From Escherichia phage EJP2, in the sequence record OQ411014.1: a stretch of DNA of 64,000 nt, one strand, 5' to 3'. The position numbers and the translations under genes are program-made. This document shows, in pieces, positions 16,624-24,956 of the stretch (its first letter is position 1; each line of letters opens with the position of its first letter). The notes under the pieces are model-generated. The model worked only from the letters and a program-made list of their open reading frames with translations. It did not search any database and was not told the DNA's origin.

Positions 16624-16655
16624 ATATAAAATTTTGTATATCTTTGGAGGATATC

Positions 16656-17525
16656 ATGGCAAACAAAAAATTACTACAAGAAGCTATTCAGGCTTTTGCA
16701 AATGGTGAACACGCTGTTGCTGATAAAAAACTACGTAAATATTTTATCGAAACCGCTCAAGAAATTAACAAGAAACTAGAAGAAGAAATGGAAGCGGAAG
16801 AGTGTGAAGAAATCTCTGAAGCGGAAGAAGTAGAAGACTGTGAAGAAGTCGTTGCTGAAGACATTCATTCTGGTCAATCAGAAGATCTAACTGGTGAAAT
16901 TCAATATGCACTAGGTGAAGCTGAAGACGAAGAAGTTGAAGCTGGCGAAGAAGAAATTGGTATCGACGGTGACGAAGAAGTTGCTGGCGAAGAAGAAGTT
17001 GAAGTTGAGTCTGGTGACCTACCAACTCAAGACCAATGGGCTTCCATTAAAGATGCAATTGATTCTCTAAGCAAGCGTTTCGATGAAATCGAAGGCGAAG
17101 GCGACATTGACCTAGATGTTGAAGGTGATGATGTTGGTGATGAAGAAGAAATTTCCGATTTCGAAATTGACGATGCAGGTGAAGAAGAATTTGGTGATGT
17201 ACAGTTCGGTGATGAGAAATTTGGCGAATCTTACAAAATGAAACCAGTTTCTAAACCAGGTAACGATGCAGCTAAATCTAAATCTCCAGTTGCACCAAAC
17301 GCTAAATCTCCAGTAGACGGCGTTGACCCAGTTAAGATCAAAGATGGTAACGTTGTTACTAACGATGGCGAACTTCTAAAAAATAAAGATGCTGACACTG
17401 CTAAAGTGGAAGACATGAACAACGTTATGGATAATGCTAAAGGTCTAATGAAAGACGTTAAGAAACCAGCTAATAAAGCTGACAAATCTAAGTCTGTAGT
17501 TCCATCAAAAGCACCAAAGTTCTAA
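16656..17525 (+). CDS. Highly acidic prohead core / scaffold-like protein
   Basis: D/E-rich with strong GGAGG site before ATG 16656 (track start 16644 is TTG); position between portal and protease matches the T4 gp67/gp68 region. Confidence 0.5.
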   Translation: MANKKLLQEAIQAFANGEHAVADKKLRKYFIETAQEINKKLEEEMEAEECEEISEAEEVEDCEEVVAEDIHSGQSEDLTGEIQYALGEAEDEEVEAGEEEIGIDGDEEVAGEEEVEVESGDLPTQDQWASIKDAIDSLSKRFDEIEGEGDIDLDVEGDDVGDEEEISDFEIDDAGEEEFGDVQFGDEKFGESYKMKPVSKPGNDAAKSKSPVAPNAKSPVDGVDPVKIKDGNVVTNDGELLKNKDADTAKVEDMNNVMDNAKGLMKDVKKPANKADKSKSVVPSKAPKF

Positions 17526-17559: not shown

Positions 17560-18183
17560 ATGAACATGATAAGAGAGTGGTCTTCATTCAGTGATTCGAA
17601 CATTGTACTTGAATATCAAGAAAACAAATTAGGCGGTAAGGATTGCTACCTTCGTGGTATTGCAATCCAAGCCGATAAACGAAACCTGAACGAACGTATC
17701 TACCCACTAAATGAAATTGCTCATGCTGTTGAAGTTATGCAACAACGTCTGCAACGTGGTGAGAGCATTCTTGTTGAATGTGACCACCCAGAAACACTAA
17801 CTATTAACTTAGACCGAGTTGCAGCCAAAATTACGAAAGTATGGATGGAAGGTCACAATGGTATGGCAGAAATTAAACTTCTACCAACCTCACATGGCAA
17901 AAACATTCGGGCTATGCTCGAAGCAGGTGTAAAATTGGGTGTAAGCTCACGTGGTTCTGGTAACGTTGACCATAACGGTATCGTATCAGATTTCGAAATT
18001 GTTACTATTGATATTGTTGCTCAACCAAGTGCTCCAGATGCTTATCCAGAAGCAGTATTTGAGTCTCTAAACTATAAGTACGGTTCACCTGCTAACGGAA
18101 GAAAATCTATCGTTGAAAACAAGAAAGTTCCTACTTCAGTAGAAAACGAAATTCACGATTTTTTCAAGAAATTAAAAGGTTAA
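17560..18183 (+). CDS. Prohead protease (T4 gp21-like)
   Basis: 207 aa, same size and position (portal-protease-scaffold-capsid) as T4 gp21; strong AGGAGA RBS. Synteny-based. Confidence 0.55.
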   Translation: MNMIREWSSFSDSNIVLEYQENKLGGKDCYLRGIAIQADKRNLNERIYPLNEIAHAVEVMQQRLQRGESILVECDHPETLTINLDRVAAKITKVWMEGHNGMAEIKLLPTSHGKNIRAMLEAGVKLGVSSRGSGNVDHNGIVSDFEIVTIDIVAQPSAPDAYPEAVFESLNYKYGSPANGRKSIVENKKVPTSVENEIHDFFKKLKG

Positions 18184-19371: not shown

Positions 19372-19399
19372 TTATTTTATAAAGCTAATCTTTTTCAGT

Positions 19400-19420
19400 G
19401 ATAAATAATAACATACTGAA
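19400..19420 (+). promoter_or_regulatory. Late-type promoter box GATAAATAAT with ACATACTGAAA element
   Basis: GATAAATAATAACATACTGAAAAG about 35 nt upstream of the capsid gene start. Confidence 0.5.
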
Positions 19421-19454
19421 AAGCGAAATAAACCATCTTTTAAGGAGATATAAA

Positions 19455-20630
19455 ATGTCACAACTATTAACTGAATCTAAATGGGCACAAGTTAAGAGCA
19501 AACTAACCGAAGGTCTAAAAGACAACCGTAAACTAGTAATGGAATCTGTTCTAGAAAACCATCGTAAAGTAATGCTAAACGAAAACGCTTCTGGCGGTGC
19601 AACTTCTGCTGGTAACATTGCTACCCTAAACAAAGTAATTCTACCAATCATGCGTCGTGTAATGCCAACCGTTATCGCTAACGAAATCATCGGTGTTCAA
19701 CCAATGTCTGGCCCAGTTGGTCAAATCCATACCCTACGTGTTCAATATGCTGATAACGCACCAGGCGTTGTAGCTGGTGAAGAAATGCTATCCCCATACA
19801 AAATCGCTAAGTCCTATACTGGTGATGTGAATGGCGATAACGAAAATCCACGTGCTGCTCCTACTAGTCAACTAGAAGGTACTATGGGTCGTCGCGTTAA
19901 CATCCGTATCCTACGTGAAACCGTTGAAGCGAAATCTCGTCGTCTATCCGCTCGTTGGACTGTTGAATCTGCACAAGATGCACAATCTCAACACGGTATC
20001 GATATCGAAGCTGAACTAATGGCTGCTATCGCTCAAGAAGTTACTACTGAAATCGACCAAGAGCTACTACACAAACTACGTGCTCTACCTGGTGCTGCTG
20101 CTGTAACTTATGACCAATCCAAAGTTACTGGTGTTGCTACTTTCGTTGGTGATGAACATGCTGCTCTAGCTACTCTAATCAACCGTCAAGCGAACGAAGT
20201 TGCTCGTCGTACCAAACGTGGTGCTGCAAACTGGGCTGTTGTTTCCCCAACCGCACTAACCATTCTACAGTCTGCAACTACTTCTAGCTTTGCTCGTACC
20301 ACCGAAGGTACTTTCGAAGCACCAACTAACGTTAAGTTTGTTGGCGTACTAAACAGTACTATGCGTATCTATGTTGATACCTATGCAGATGACAGTACTG
20401 ATGTACTAATCGGTTACAAAGGTAATGCTGAAACTGATGCTGGCGTGTTCTACTGCCCGTACATCCCACTAATGGCTTCCGGTACTGTAATGGACCCTAA
20501 CACTGGGGAACTCGTAACAACATTCTTAACCAGATATGGCTACGTACAGTTGACCGACAGTACCAGTTCTCTTGGTAACGCGGCTGACTACTACAGCAAA
20601 ATTGCTATCCGCAACGTAACCTTCATGTAA
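19455..20630 (+). CDS. Major capsid protein, T4 gp23/gp24 family
   Basis: IANEIIGVQPMSGPVGQ and ETDAGVFYCPYIPL match recalled gp23 blocks (IAFDICGVQPMNSPTGQ; EMDAGIYYAPYVAL); strongly biased codon usage; TAAGGAGA RBS. Confidence 0.9.
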   Translation: MSQLLTESKWAQVKSKLTEGLKDNRKLVMESVLENHRKVMLNENASGGATSAGNIATLNKVILPIMRRVMPTVIANEIIGVQPMSGPVGQIHTLRVQYADNAPGVVAGEEMLSPYKIAKSYTGDVNGDNENPRAAPTSQLEGTMGRRVNIRILRETVEAKSRRLSARWTVESAQDAQSQHGIDIEAELMAAIAQEVTTEIDQELLHKLRALPGAAAVTYDQSKVTGVATFVGDEHAALATLINRQANEVARRTKRGAANWAVVSPTALTILQSATTSSFARTTEGTFEAPTNVKFVGVLNSTMRIYVDTYADDSTDVLIGYKGNAETDAGVFYCPYIPLMASGTVMDPNTGELVTTFLTRYGYVQLTDSTSSLGNAADYYSKIAIRNVTFM

Positions 20631-20650
20631 TATGTTTTAAAACCTTAAAA

Positions 20651-20678
20651 GGGACTCTTGACGAGTCCCTTTTCTTTT
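20651..20678 (+). terminator. Rho-independent terminator after capsid gene
   Basis: GGGACTC TTGA CGAGTCCC hairpin followed by TTTTCTTTT. Confidence 0.7.
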
Positions 20679-20728
20679 ATTATAATCACACGTATACAAA
20701 GAAACCCCAACTGAAGAGAATTAAAAAA

Positions 20729-21823
20729 ATGCCTAAATCATCAATGACTCAACAAGAATTCGAAACTAAAATGACCGAGAAGTATGGTAAAGTAGATTTC
20801 AGTACTATGACGTTTAAGTTGAGTAAAACTACAATCAATTGTCCTAAGTGTGGAAACGCAAATACCAAATCTGCAATCCGACACATTGAATGTACTTGTG
20901 CAAACTGTTTTTCCAATATGTCACAACGTTCTAGTAATGAAATTTTCATCGAAAAAGTAGAAAACAAATTCGGAGCAGGTAAGTTCAAATTCGACAAACT
21001 AAATTATCATAACGCCAAAACTCCGGTTGAATTGTTCTGCACTGAACATAATGCATATTTCACCATTGTCCCAAATAAAATGCTCACTGGACATGGTTGT
21101 AATGTATGTAATAAAAATGAAGCACATACTACTGAAAGTTTCATTACAATTGCGAAAAAGAATTATGGCACTACCACGTTTGACTTCACTAATACAGTGT
21201 ATGTTAACCGCCAAACTAAAGTATCAATCCATTGTAACGAAGGTAATCACGAATGGTTAGTTAACCCAGCAACTATAATCGCCGGAATAAACCAATGTGG
21301 TGTCTGTAAACGCAAATCTGGTATGACAACGGAACGTTTTATTAGTGATGCAAACTCTGTACATGATAATGCATACACATATGAGAACACTGTTTATAAA
21401 AGAAGTGAATGTGTCGTAGATATCACATGTCCAAAGCATGGAAACTTTACACAATCACCAAAGTCACACCTTCGTGGTCGTGGATGTCCAAAGTGTGGTA
21501 AGTATGGTTATCAACAAACACAGCCAGGTTACTTCTATATTCAGAAGTTGACGAATGAGAACAAAACTGTGTATAAGTACGGAATCACTGGTGACATGAA
21601 ACGTCGCGTCCAAGAACAATCCCGTGATTCTGTATTTGAACACGAAGTGCTTGTTGAAATGTACTTTGAAGACGGAAAGAAACCAATGGCATTAGAATCA
21701 CTGTTGAAGAACTATATTGAGAGTGGAGTCACCAGTACTGAAGAATTGCCATCAGGATTTTCGGAAACCTTTGATGAGAAGTACTTAGATGAAGTACTAT
21801 CCATAGTAAATAACTTTAGGTAA
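20729..21823 (+). CDS. Zinc-ribbon-repeat protein with C-terminal GIY-YIG-like (T5orf172-type) domain; candidate homing/mobile nuclease
   Basis: Four repeats of a C..HG.F...P...G.GC..C unit (e.g. CPKHGNFTQSPKSHLRGRGCPKCG); C-terminus GYFYIQKL...YKYGITGDMKRRVQEQ. Confidence 0.5.
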   Translation: MPKSSMTQQEFETKMTEKYGKVDFSTMTFKLSKTTINCPKCGNANTKSAIRHIECTCANCFSNMSQRSSNEIFIEKVENKFGAGKFKFDKLNYHNAKTPVELFCTEHNAYFTIVPNKMLTGHGCNVCNKNEAHTTESFITIAKKNYGTTTFDFTNTVYVNRQTKVSIHCNEGNHEWLVNPATIIAGINQCGVCKRKSGMTTERFISDANSVHDNAYTYENTVYKRSECVVDITCPKHGNFTQSPKSHLRGRGCPKCGKYGYQQTQPGYFYIQKLTNENKTVYKYGITGDMKRRVQEQSRDSVFEHEVLVEMYFEDGKKPMALESLLKNYIESGVTSTEELPSGFSETFDEKYLDEVLSIVNNFR

Positions 21824-21843
21824 TAACAGAAGGACAAGAATTC

Positions 21844-22236
21844 ATGGATGAAAACACAATAGTAACGGTATATCGATTCGGAAAGGAAGTTTACCTAAAG
21901 AACAGTACTGGAAACTTTGAATCTCTCATTGAAGGATACCCATTAGTAGCATATAATGCAGATACAGAAGAGCTATACCAGTATCAGGATGCACATAGAT
22001 ACAGTAAAGGTAGTTTTGTGCAGGATATGCTACAGATTGACGGCACTGAGATGAGTTATAAGATGTACTTAGACGTCTACAAGGCTGAAATGAACAAGAA
22101 ACACATCTCTGCACCAGTACTGGCAGAGATTTACGAAAATCAACACCAAAATCCGCACTTAACTGATGATTTGAAGCCAGTTAATGCGTTTGACAAGCTA
22201 AGTAAGCTCGGATTGAACTTCAAAATCAGTAGATAA
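21844..22236 (+). CDS. Hypothetical protein (130 aa)
   Basis: ORF between the two T5orf172-like genes. Confidence 0.45.
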   Translation: MDENTIVTVYRFGKEVYLKNSTGNFESLIEGYPLVAYNADTEELYQYQDAHRYSKGSFVQDMLQIDGTEMSYKMYLDVYKAEMNKKHISAPVLAEIYENQHQNPHLTDDLKPVNAFDKLSKLGLNFKISR

Positions 22237-22276
22237 ATAATCCCAGAGTACAATTCAGTACTATGGGAGAGATTAA

Positions 22277-22582
22277 ATGCAAATATGTTACGTAATCACC
22301 AATAAAGCATGGCCTGAGTGGGTAAAAATTGGATTCACATCTAAATCAGAGATGAAATCCAGACTAAGTACATACCAGACGGGTTCACCATTTAGAGATT
22401 ATGAAGTATATCATGAAGTACTATTTGATGATGCGAAATCCGCTGAAAAAGAAGTACATAAGCGTTTAAAACAAATGAATGCAACTAGATCACCAGGGAC
22501 TGAGTGGTTTAAAATGAGTAAAAAAATAGCAGCCAATATGATTGATTCAGTTCTAGATGATATAGAGAACGACTTGCTATAA
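22277..22582 (+). CDS. Stand-alone T5orf172/GIY-YIG-like domain protein
   Basis: ICYVITNKAWPEWVKIGFTSK...RLSTYQTGSP matches the T5orf172 core pattern; ATAAATAAT box upstream at 22232. Confidence 0.45.
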   Translation: MQICYVITNKAWPEWVKIGFTSKSEMKSRLSTYQTGSPFRDYEVYHEVLFDDAKSAEKEVHKRLKQMNATRSPGTEWFKMSKKIAANMIDSVLDDIENDLL

Positions 22583-22587
22583 ATATC
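22578..22587 (+). promoter_or_regulatory. Late-type promoter box CTATAAATAT upstream of tail fibre gene
   Basis: TATAAATA-type box about 35 nt before the 22623 start. Confidence 0.4.
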
Positions 22588-22622
22588 AATATATTGACAT
22601 ACGATAAAAAGGATTTTATAAT

Positions 22623-24332
22623 ATGAGTATTAGTTTTAACCATCCTTCCAACATTGTAACGAGTACGAGTACTCTTGAGATTACAGCATTGGGTGGAACA
22701 GCTAGTAATCCTAAACCAATACGTTTGAATGCATCATCGTTGATTGTTCCGGTTAAACCTCTTCCAGCAGGTGAAATGGGTGCATTAGTATTCGACAATT
22801 CAACCCATACTATGAAGTATCATGACGGTACTAGTTGGGTAGAACTATTGGCTAAAGATGTAATACTACAACCAATCATTAATGATATTGCAACCATTAA
22901 TACTAAATTAGGAACTAAAGTAGATAGTGTTACTTACTCATCTAGTGCCATCCCAAGTGCATCTGTGAGTGGTACAACATTAAACATTATCTTCCCAACT
23001 GGTAGTACTGGCGGTACTGGCCCAACAGGGTTGTATACTTCCCTTAAACCTGGTACAATAACCCACTATGCATTAACATCAGGTCAAAACGCAGCATCTA
23101 TTCGTGAACAGATGTCTGGTGTTTCCGGTGGTCAATCAGGCCGCAACGGAACTTCAGGATCTCCATACAAAACTTCCGATGGTTGGTGTTTCGCTGATGG
23201 ATTATACTGGACATGGGCTGGTGAAAATGGTACAGTAACAAAACAGGTTCCGAACTTAAACCAAGATGCTTATTTGAAACCAATGACTGTTTCTGGTGTA
23301 ACACAAATCGCATCTGTTATTGCTGGTTCAGCACAAATTGGTCAAACTGCATTATCTATTGCTCAATTGCCACCACACAGCTTCACTGTGAGTGGACAAA
23401 CAAGCACAGCGGGTGAGCACATCCACTCCCAACAACTTAGAGGTAATGACCGTTCAGGACACACTGCAATCACTTCTTCTGCTGATGCAGGTATCCCAAC
23501 AGTAATTACTAACGTTAACGCTGCTGGTAATCACATCCATACATTCTCTGGTTCATCCAATACTATTGGTTCTGGTCAGGGTCATGGACATACAATTTCA
23601 AATATTGATGTTAACCACTTTACTGTTGCTGTTTTATATAACATCGCAGAAGGTTCAGTTGCATTGAGTGAGAAAGTTGCAAGTACTAAGTACGTACTGA
23701 AAGCTGGAGACGTAATGACTGGTTCACTTACTATTGCCAACGCATCAATTCTTCGTGGTGATGACGCTTCTCTAGTCCAGTACTTCAGATATGCAAACAA
23801 CACAGAACGTGCAGCAATTTATCATTCATCTTCTAACAACACATTACGTTTACGTAGTAGTGGTGGCACAGAAGTAACGATTGCCAATAACGGTACTTTG
23901 TTCGCTAGTGCATTAACAGGTTCGTCTGGTAACATCAGCGGTACTTTAACAGCTAGTACTATTAGTGCAACTAACGGTACTTTCAGCGGTACTTTAACTG
24001 TTAACTATACCAATACATCTTCATTGAACGTAACAAGTCAATCTGCTGTAGTTGGTGGTAAGAACATTGTTCGCTCCATTAACGGTACTGGTGCTGATGG
24101 AAACGGTAACGTAACACTAACTCTAGGTGCTATCCAAAATATTAAACTTGGGCCACGCCGCCAAACTCCAAAAATGAAAGATGCTTCTTGGACGCATGTC
24201 GAAGCAGGTGGTTTATTGGATGGTGCTTGGATTTCTGTCAACGGTAGTTCAGGAACACACTTAGAAAGATTGAGTTATAGAATGGTTTCTGTTATGGTTA
24301 ACGGCGTATGGAAAACAATTGACGTTGAATAA
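22623..24332 (+). CDS. Tail fibre / receptor-binding protein with HxH metal-binding-type repeats
   Basis: N-terminal GALVFDNSTHTMKYHDGTSWVEL fibre motif; repeated GEHIHS, GNHIHT and GHGHT units; Gly/Ser/Thr-rich C-terminal half. Confidence 0.65.
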   Translation: MSISFNHPSNIVTSTSTLEITALGGTASNPKPIRLNASSLIVPVKPLPAGEMGALVFDNSTHTMKYHDGTSWVELLAKDVILQPIINDIATINTKLGTKVDSVTYSSSAIPSASVSGTTLNIIFPTGSTGGTGPTGLYTSLKPGTITHYALTSGQNAASIREQMSGVSGGQSGRNGTSGSPYKTSDGWCFADGLYWTWAGENGTVTKQVPNLNQDAYLKPMTVSGVTQIASVIAGSAQIGQTALSIAQLPPHSFTVSGQTSTAGEHIHSQQLRGNDRSGHTAITSSADAGIPTVITNVNAAGNHIHTFSGSSNTIGSGQGHGHTISNIDVNHFTVAVLYNIAEGSVALSEKVASTKYVLKAGDVMTGSLTIANASILRGDDASLVQYFRYANNTERAAIYHSSSNNTLRLRSSGGTEVTIANNGTLFASALTGSSGNISGTLTASTISATNGTFSGTLTVNYTNTSSLNVTSQSAVVGGKNIVRSINGTGADGNGNVTLTLGAIQNIKLGPRRQTPKMKDASWTHVEAGGLLDGAWISVNGSSGTHLERLSYRMVSVMVNGVWKTIDVE

Positions 24333-24347
24333 TAATAGGAATATAGT

Positions 24348-24860
24348 ATGCTTAATCTGAAAAATTTCAAAAAGTACAAACCGGAAGGTATCATTGACGG
24401 TTTTATGTATCTTATATCAGAAGATGGGTTAGATTGGTATGAGGCACGTGAAATGTTCCAAGAAGATACAGTGAAGATTTTGTATGAGAATGACGGCACT
24501 ATTGTATGTGCCGACTACACGGCACTATTCATGCCCCCATTAGATTGTAGTATTGCTGAAATATACTATGACGGAAACTTGAATGATTTGTATGGGATGG
24601 TTTTCGATGGTGAAAAAGTAGTACCATACGATGAACCAAACTCTGAACGGATTGAGCGTTTAAAATCTGAGCAAAAGAATCTTAAAGTATCTGCAATCAA
24701 CGAACTGAATAACTTAAAAATGGCAATCGACCTTGATGTAGCAACCGAAGATGAAAAGAAACTCTTCCCAGTACTGAAGAGTTACATCATGAAACTATCC
24801 ACTTTCACTGATGATGATTTCACTGATAAACTGTTTGAATTTCCAGTTAAACCAGTTTAA
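24348..24860 (+). CDS. Tail fibre assembly chaperone (Tfa-like)
   Basis: C-terminal block AIDLDVATEDEKKLFPVLKSYIMKL matches the tail-fibre-assembly pattern; immediately downstream of the fibre gene. Confidence 0.6.
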   Translation: MLNLKNFKKYKPEGIIDGFMYLISEDGLDWYEAREMFQEDTVKILYENDGTIVCADYTALFMPPLDCSIAEIYYDGNLNDLYGMVFDGEKVVPYDEPNSERIERLKSEQKNLKVSAINELNNLKMAIDLDVATEDEKKLFPVLKSYIMKLSTFTDDDFTDKLFEFPVKPV

Positions 24861-24956
24861 CAAAAAAATATGAGACAAATCGAAAACGTCTGATATAATA
24901 GAGTCATCTGACATGGTGTTAGATGACTTTTCTAAAATCCAAATGGAGAAAACATA

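Follow-up and report, generated by a model that had tools for sequence, protein, structure and literature searches.

Between the major capsid gene and the tail fibre gene of Escherichia phage EJP2 lie two open reading frames (ORFs) whose products, of 364 and 101 amino acids (aa), both carry a GIY-YIG-like domain of the T5orf172 type. Are they a pair of mobile nucleases, or nuclease-derived proteins recruited to exclude co-infecting phages, as the original prediction proposed in the alternative, or are they two genes of different kinds? We addressed this question in a 64,000-nucleotide stretch of the genome (sequence record OQ411014.1; hereafter the window). The phage is a ~350 kb jumbo myovirus and belongs with 121Q, PBECO4, CBB and Munch, to whose capsid genes that of the window is 87-91% identical in nucleotide sequence. 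The two ORFs do lie where predicted, between neighbours that match Pfam Gp23 and phrog_13229. Our results make it likely that two unrelated kinds of GIY-YIG-superfamily gene stand side by side here, a freestanding, T5orf172-class homing endonuclease gene (HEG) for 364 aa and a vertically inherited core gene for a 101 aa protein of nuclease fold. The features that bear on this reading are the following.

19455-20630, plus strand: gp23-type major capsid gene (probable start ATG 19455, stop 20630; Pfam Gp23, 6.6e-91)
20375-20630, plus strand: 3' end of the capsid gene with a tract of silent divergence (window against Logan contig L013)
20647-20686, plus strand: terminator hairpin of the capsid gene with an overlapping sigma70-like promoter
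20687-21826, plus strand: HEG cassette of ~1.14 kb, a 42 nt leader with its own ribosome-binding site (RBS) plus the ORF, from junction alignments against empty sites
20729-21823, plus strand: large gene, read as a T5orf172-type freestanding HEG of 364 aa (repeats at aa 7-64, 67-130, 133-196 and 199-259; GIY-YIG/T5orf172 domain at aa ~262-364)
21051-21499, plus strand: exchanged DNA coding for zinc-finger repeats 3-4 (window against L013, 36% nucleotide divergence)
22277-22582, plus strand: small gene, 101 aa stand-alone T5orf172/GIY-YIG-fold protein

To examine the repeats of the 364 aa protein, one hidden Markov model (HMM) was built for each ~60-residue unit and tested for cross-detection of the others. 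Units R2-R4 match one another at i-E values of 1e-10 to 1e-18, and the HMM of R1, a divergent variant with the pattern CxxC...CxCxxC, detects the other units at 1e-9 to 1e-15. The four predicted units are therefore homologous, but the literal pattern C..HG.F...G.GC..C by which they had been described fits unit 4 only, units 2-3 follow it more loosely and unit 1 is a variant. Units 2-4 each have three invariant cysteines plus variable His/Cys. DUF723 and DUF4379, a treble-clef zinc finger, match the window protein just under the Pfam cut-off; across the 34 aligned members of the HEG family, DUF4379 matches 27, DUF723 12 and the CapR homology domain 9. The C-terminal ~100 residues are also sub-threshold in the window protein, with 17 bits for T5orf172 (PF10544; cut-off 20) and 21.2 bits for MUG113 (cut-off 22.3). 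At the family level T5orf172 is matched by 14/34 members (best 2e-8) and MUG113 by 13/34 (E<=0.01), and phrog_681, 'endonuclease', matches the whole window protein at 4.7e-73 with the nuclease domain covered. Taken over the family, these profile searches agree with the predicted C-terminal T5orf172-like domain. It has the GIY-YIG fold with its motif residues, and GYFY (267-270), YKYGIT (282-287), R292/R293, E323 and G343-F-S-E346-T are at least 90% conserved in the family. Judged by motif order and spacing, E346 would be the positional counterpart of the essential Glu in I-TevI and Odn. PDB sequence searches with the 364 aa and 101 aa proteins gave no match, nor did an NCBIfam search with the three ORFs between the capsid and tail fibre genes.

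The 364 aa protein thus combines a zinc-finger array at one terminus with a T5orf172 nuclease at the other, the arrangement by which Barth et al. define their class. Zinc fingers of the CapR, DUF723 or DUF4379/4397 type occur in 87% of 229 T5orf172 HEGs, often in several copies, as 'class V repeat proteins', and recombination between repeats and domain swapping between these genes have been reported (Barth, Dunham & Seed 2023, PMC10448857). Because a repeated zinc-finger array has already been described as the norm, the view that this repeat architecture is uncommon does not hold.

Capsid genes are found in 31% of T5orf172 HEG neighbourhoods (PMC10448857). The large gene lies directly 3' of the major capsid gene, an essential gene, and is variably present among close relatives. 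We measured the spacing from the capsid gene end to the small-gene start in 52 GenBank relatives. It is 1652 nt in the window and 424-622 nt, leaving no room for a HEG, in 19/52; with the site empty in these genomes, the presence/absence comparison shows a gene that is not conserved throughout. Spacings of ~1433-1497 nt (12/52) correspond to a three-finger HEG and those of ~1650-1666 nt (12/52) to a four-finger HEG like the window's, and further classes occur at 840, ~1560, 1748, ~2167 and 2384 nt. Among the loci of jumbo relatives in IMG/VR, 14 of 19 have the short, HEG-less form. The cassette is missing from Hallingskeid, CBB, pEa_SNUABM_19, PBECO4 and others, and alignment with the first three of these empty sites places it between the terminator hairpin with its trailing TATAAT and the RBS of a 130 aa gene. 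Its left junction directly follows the terminator/promoter region of the capsid gene. The hairpin, AAAAGGGACTC-TTGAC-GAGTCCCTTTT and then a T run (20647-20686), is kept in all relatives, and every occupant begins 3' of it.

At least five different occupants of this post-capsid site occur across relatives, and at least four T5orf172 alleles and one unrelated protein share exactly one junction. Within Asteriusvirus, the junction is empty in PBECO4; 121Q has a four-finger HEG of 365 aa there (64% identity to the window's), and SHEFM2K a protein of 332 aa whose nuclease domain is of the same type (Pfam T5orf172, 26 bits) but whose N-terminus differs. In UE-S1 (L010 1818-3476) the occupant is unrelated, a protein of 552 aa that carries DUF7487, weakly matches a restriction-endonuclease-like model (MTES_1575) and might represent another class of mobile nuclease. 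Salmonella phage Munch has a three-finger version, 55% identical to the window's, and Salmonella phage SE_PL a CapR-domain version, 36% identical, plus an extra ORF of 207 aa (L003 5545-6168) that has no Pfam match.

The similarities of the HEG do not parallel those of the capsid protein. The capsid protein of the window is 96% identical to that of Munch and 91% to that of 121Q; for the HEG the values are 55% and 64%. Munch and PHA46, likewise a Salmonella phage, are 100% identical over 3.9 kb upstream and then differ by the clean presence or absence of a 969 bp cassette. Capsid proteins are identical within the pairs Munch/PHA46, 121Q/PBECO4 and Munch/SE_PL, and the nucleotide mismatches between their genes, all silent, pile up in the last 331 nt: 13/17 for Munch/PHA46 (binomial P 5e-5), 33/39 for 121Q/PBECO4 (P 3e-13) and 42/43 for Munch/SE_PL (P 2e-22). 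Divergence runs past the site into the middle gene in the first two pairs, and in 121Q/PBECO4 it also reaches the first two-thirds of the small gene, before identity returns to 99-100%.

A fourth pair involves the window itself. Contig L013 is 99-100% identical to it from 16.8 to 25.8 kb, two blocks excepted. There are 0 differences over 20000-20374 and then 26 in 256 nt, none of which changes a capsid amino acid; the block opens at 20375 with ten consecutive capsid codons recoded synonymously (20375-20402). Divergence is 5-13% through the intergenic region and fingers 1-2, rises to 36% in fingers 3-4 and ends at 21499, the junction between finger 4 and the nuclease domain. At the protein level the differences are 2/64 in R1, 4/66 in R2, 25/66 in R3, 28/63 in R4 and 1/105 in the nuclease. 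A third allele, L021, has the same right boundary. At the left, a mismatch cluster in the patch 20372-20408 recurs in the Munch/PHA46 and 121Q/PBECO4 pairs, and these codons are a candidate homing target/immunity site or co-conversion tract end. Exact 30-mers of both versions of the patch had no match in IMG/VR.

Silent tracts at the capsid 3' end together with a finger swap are the pattern expected from repair of a break off a HEG-bearing genome with co-conversion of flanking DNA. The ORF is intact and under purifying selection (dN/dS ~0.11 against 121Q, with dS saturated). In phage T4, SegF, SegG and MobE are freestanding endonucleases that cut a few hundred bp from their own genes. The flanking tracts also fit the picture of Barth et al., in which nuclease genes sit at the boundaries of genetic exchange (PMC10448857).

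The large gene therefore shows those defining features of T5orf172-class freestanding HEGs that can be tested on sequence, and from them we infer cleavage, the position of the target and homing. The four fingers, arranged as beads on a string, would read an extended DNA site that most likely lies within or close to the capsid gene 3' end of relatives that lack the HEG or are differently equipped, and the C-terminal GIY-YIG-type domain would cut this capsid-region target. During co-infection the break would be repaired off the HEG-bearing genome, so that the cassette and adjacent capsid 3' sequence are copied. Exchange of single finger modules could retarget the nuclease.

None of this extends to the small gene. 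Its product scores 49.4 bits for T5orf172 (PF10544; cut-off 20) over profile positions 2-98 of 101 and 48 bits for MUG113 (cut-off 22.3), and it has the GIY-YIG alpha/beta fold with Tyr (beta1), K/Y-I-G (beta2), Arg (helix 1) and Glu. We found the gene by tblastn in 62/62 relatives, always just 5' of the tail fibre gene and 77-88% identical, and in every jumbo relative it is a stand-alone ORF of 100-108 aa with the nuclease fold only. With pN 0.08-0.14, pS saturated and dN/dS ~0.1, it is under strong purifying selection, and the small protein is second in conservation at this locus to the capsid protein only, and stands above the prohead protease (66-89%) and scaffold (60-82%). Invariant in 38 sequences are Y5, N9, K17, G19, R29, T35, P38, R40, D41, E57, E76, W77 and K79. 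The sporadic distribution and DNA-recognition module of a HEG are both missing. Since it occurs in all relatives at 77-88% identity, we class the small gene as fixed, core to the phage group and not mobile. Conservation at the locus in all relatives had been named beforehand as the outcome that would tell against mobility, so of the proposed pair of mobile nucleases only the large member stands, on its domains, sporadic distribution, allele turnover and conversion tracts.

The small gene had also been described as a copy of the large protein's domain 450 bp downstream. It does encode a stand-alone T5orf172 protein, across a gap of 453 nt, but it is no close copy. When the C-terminal domain of the HEG and the small-protein family were compared profile to profile, the match was weak (hhalign E 0.024 over 38 columns), and an HMM of the small family did not detect the HEG domain. 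On these grounds the two are not recent duplicates, and we dropped the idea that one arose by recent duplication or that the HEG borrowed its nuclease domain from its neighbour. Distant homologs of the small protein in other viral contigs (40-51% identity) are mostly longer ORFs of 115-231 aa, with a median of 186.

What the small protein does is a modest question, and our answer is tentative: it may be a DNA nuclease, either without sequence specificity or specific for structure, that works in recombination or repair, a suggestion that we hold at well under even odds. 'Group 2.2' T4-core jumbo phages have two conserved Uri (GIY-YIG) proteins, one of them T5orf172, for which a Holliday-junction-resolvase-like or recombination role has been suggested (Iyer et al. 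2021, PMC7824862). Fold similarity and this published hypothesis are what might point to an SLX1-like Holliday-junction or structure-specific role. The small protein also matches the N-terminal ~90 positions, the T5orf172 domain, of the PADLOC model PDC-S57 (~212 aa) at 2.5e-15 without covering its full length. We read this as similarity at the level of one domain and draw no conclusion from it on a role in defence.

The 453 nt between the large and small genes hold a 130 aa ORF that the original prediction did not mention. This middle gene directly follows the capsid terminator in HEG-less relatives. Its product evolves fast, with 20-46% amino-acid identity among relatives, and an exhaustive HMMER search of 1.84 billion representative proteins found 9 relatives. 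Neither that search nor Pfam (no match), PHROGs, NCBIfam or PADLOC gave a functional lead, and we refer to it as an ORFan. In PHA46 the middle gene has internal deletions and both its neighbours are intact.

Several points weigh against the account given above. Barth et al. themselves consider homing by the T5orf172 HEGs of ICP1 unverified (PMC10448857), and cleavage and homing are likewise only putative for every member of the present HEG lineage. The divergence tracts could come from ordinary hot-spot recombination without nuclease action, and part of the empty sites could be deletions. For the small protein, group 2.2 phages already own an endo VII-type resolvase (PMC7824862), so that a resolvase role is not needed, and the accessions of Iyer et al., QAY00453.1 and APU01437.1, are at most putative orthologs of the small gene. 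An extended version of our account would tie the two genes together, with the core 101 aa enzyme serving a recombination hot spot, either by processing or resolving intermediates of HEG break repair or as a nuclease of recombination in general or of host DNA, made from an early-type promoter that lies between late operons, and with 20372-20408 as a shared target/immunity site contested by finger-swapped HEG alleles. We regard this as speculative and would not expect it to hold in full.

Freestanding HEGs normally bring about marker exclusion against relatives that infect the same cell. This matters for the best-placed alternative, in which the 364 aa protein is a domesticated DNA-binding protein or nuclease that benefits its phage, either as a CapR-like regulator at the capsid terminator/promoter or as an Odn-like weapon against satellites or competing phages. 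The gene sits right at that terminator/promoter junction and is under purifying selection, and HEG-derived regulators and anti-satellite nucleases have precedents in CapR (PMC8096241) and Odn (PMC8263062). However, a domesticated gene is hard to reconcile with its absence from many close relatives that are otherwise 99-100% identical, with its replacement by unrelated occupants at one site, and with the co-conversion-like tracts that flank it. The 364 aa protein has also kept its nuclease motif residues, whereas CapR has no nuclease domain, and a benefit from exclusion would be compatible with HEG behaviour rather than an alternative to it. We consider domestication unlikely.

Could the 101 aa gene instead be the leftover nuclease domain of an old HEG, or one part of a split HEG that relies on the 130 aa ORFan to bind DNA, and so be mobile or formerly mobile? 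The small protein and the HEG domain share a fold superfamily, the small gene is always paired with the upstream ORFan, a fast-evolving partner could serve as a specificity subunit, and in T5-like phages similar small T5orf172 ORFs lie in a variable tRNA region. But a mobile remnant would not be expected at one position in every relative, at 77-88% identity and dN/dS ~0.1, better conserved than prohead protease and scaffold. The ORFan has no cysteines and no recognisable DNA-binding domain, its disruption in PHA46 left the small gene intact, and no paralogs of the large, middle or small gene occur elsewhere within the 64 kb window. We find this origin very unlikely. Least probable of all is repeated loss of an ancestral large gene, perhaps now a decaying relic, with ordinary recombination and no endonuclease-driven mobility: small deletions in the adjoining middle gene of PHA46 and nearby tail-fibre modules that recombine without any HEG would suit it, but the HEG-less arrangement extends to more distant genera (Mimasvirus CBB, Eneladusvirus, Yersinia and Erwinia phages), which suggests that it is ancestral, at least four T5orf172 alleles and an unrelated protein use exactly one junction, silent divergence is concentrated beside the site in four pairs, and the ORF is intact with conserved motifs and dN/dS ~0.11.

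The sequence of the locus also holds putative transcription signals. A sigma70-like promoter, TTGACG-17-TATAAT (20658-20686; 11/12 consensus match), overlaps the capsid terminator, and HEG-less relatives have TGGTATAAT ahead of the middle gene. The cassettes of 121Q and L022 carry their own TTTACA/TTGACA...TATAAT. Just 5' of the tail fibre gene a T4-late-promoter-like ATAAATAT is conserved, in the window as TATAAATA at 22578-22585. Taken together, these motifs suggest that the small gene and the upstream ORFan are probably transcribed from a sigma70-like promoter between two late operons, and that HEG, ORFan and small gene may form an early-type unit. The octamer TATAAATA also precedes, by 40-60 nt, the scaffold gene (18195) and a structural gene (16603); with 5 copies in the window it is no more frequent than chance predicts. 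We rejected as a promoter the perfect 12/12 sigma70 match TTGACA-17-TATAAT (22594-22622), for its -35 element is not conserved in relatives and, ending one base before the tail fibre ATG, it leaves no leader.

On the plus strand the genes run in the order prohead protease, scaffold, gp23-type capsid, 364 aa ORF, 130 aa ORF, 101 aa ORF, tail fibre, tail-fibre assembly protein and T4-type DNA polymerase, with the remaining neighbours placed as follows.

17560-18183, plus strand: prohead protease
21844-22236, plus strand: middle gene, 130 aa ORFan (phrog_15724, 9e-25)
22623-24332, plus strand: tail fibre gene (phrog_13229, 2.3e-200)

Two starts in the mechanical ORF list are better moved. For the capsid gene it gives GTG 19398, and homologs (391 aa) fit ATG 19455 (MSQLLTESKW); for the scaffold gene it gives GTG 18217, and homologs (~371 aa) fit ATG 18256 (MSKLDKFLNE). 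The minus strand has a 101 aa ORF at 19385-19690 that overlaps the capsid start and is probably not a real gene. The ORF at 16644-17525, 5' of the prohead protease, has a long, extremely acidic, Glu/Asp-rich low-complexity stretch in its product. In 121Q, CBB, PHA46 and Hallingskeid the homolog at this position carries the annotation virion structural protein. The second block in which L013 departs from the window, 24105-24890, takes in the tail fibre gene's C-terminal tip together with the complete gene for tail-fibre assembly (Caudo_TAP), and identity there is only 51-68%. With its sharp boundaries it looks like a host-range cassette swap, and the same two genes show similar replacement or deletion between Munch and PHA46.

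The T5orf172 HEG class and its zinc-finger architecture are already known. What is worth keeping from this locus are the near-isogenic pairs, the finger swap and the separation of mobile from core gene. The enterobacterial 121Q-like jumbo phages join the lineages whose genome mosaicism would be shaped by T5orf172 HEGs, and they supply clean natural 'before and after' pairs, with 99-100% identical backbones that differ by a cassette or by two finger modules, accompanied by silent recoding of ~250-330 nt of the capsid gene. From such pairs 20372-20408 emerges as a candidate target region, and the swapping of fingers as a way for new specificities to arise that might be of use in the engineering of modular nucleases. 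Annotation gains too: a mobile gene is told apart from an adjoining core gene that has the same fold and receives an identical pipeline label.

How does the locus compare with known systems? The closest counterparts in the same position are in 121Q, whose gene order of capsid, HEG, ORFan, small T5orf172 and tail fibre matches the window. RefSeq already labels gp604 (YP_009102191.1), the positional ortholog of the large gene and only 64% identical to it, 'endonuclease', and gp606 (YP_009102193.1), the positional ortholog of the small gene and 81% identical, 'GIY-YIG nuclease family protein'. The searched literature holds no experimental study of either. By sequence the small protein belongs to T5orf172/MUG113 and not to the SLX1/HIGLE, UPF0213 or EndoII families; it is 13-17% identical to the SLX1 catalytic domain/HIGLE, UPF0213 (YhbQ-like) and T4 EndoII proteins, and no SLX4-like partner is known. 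The 364 aa protein departs from the T4 Seg family and I-TevI in three ways: its nuclease is C-terminal, which reverses the domain order, a zinc-finger repeat array is predicted to bind DNA in place of NUMOD/HTH modules, and the 'YIG' tyrosine motif is of the YKYG/KIG type, as in T5orf172. With Odn (Gp88) of ICP1 it shares a T5orf172-type domain with conserved Arg and Glu. Odn, an anti-satellite nuclease that is active in vitro and inactive as an E180A mutant, is the sole biochemical proof of DNA cleavage by a T5orf172 domain (PMC8263062), but it binds DNA through a RepA_N domain and, unlike a zinc-finger HEG, serves as a domesticated tool of defence. The large gene most resembles the HEGs of ICP1 and other phages, with their N-terminal array of CapR/DUF723/DUF4379-type fingers and C-terminal T5orf172 nuclease, freestanding beside a capsid gene, variable in close relatives, subject to finger-module shuffling and placed at a boundary of genetic exchange (PMC10448857). 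ICP1 Gp121, a putative HEG with CapR homology, likewise adjoins the capsid gene gp122 (PMC8096241). Unlike these, the window protein comes from a 121Q/Asteriusvirus-like jumbo myovirus and is sub-threshold for Pfam T5orf172, and the exchange tracts are here narrowed to ~250-330 nt of the capsid 3' end by three to four near-isogenic pairs found in nature.

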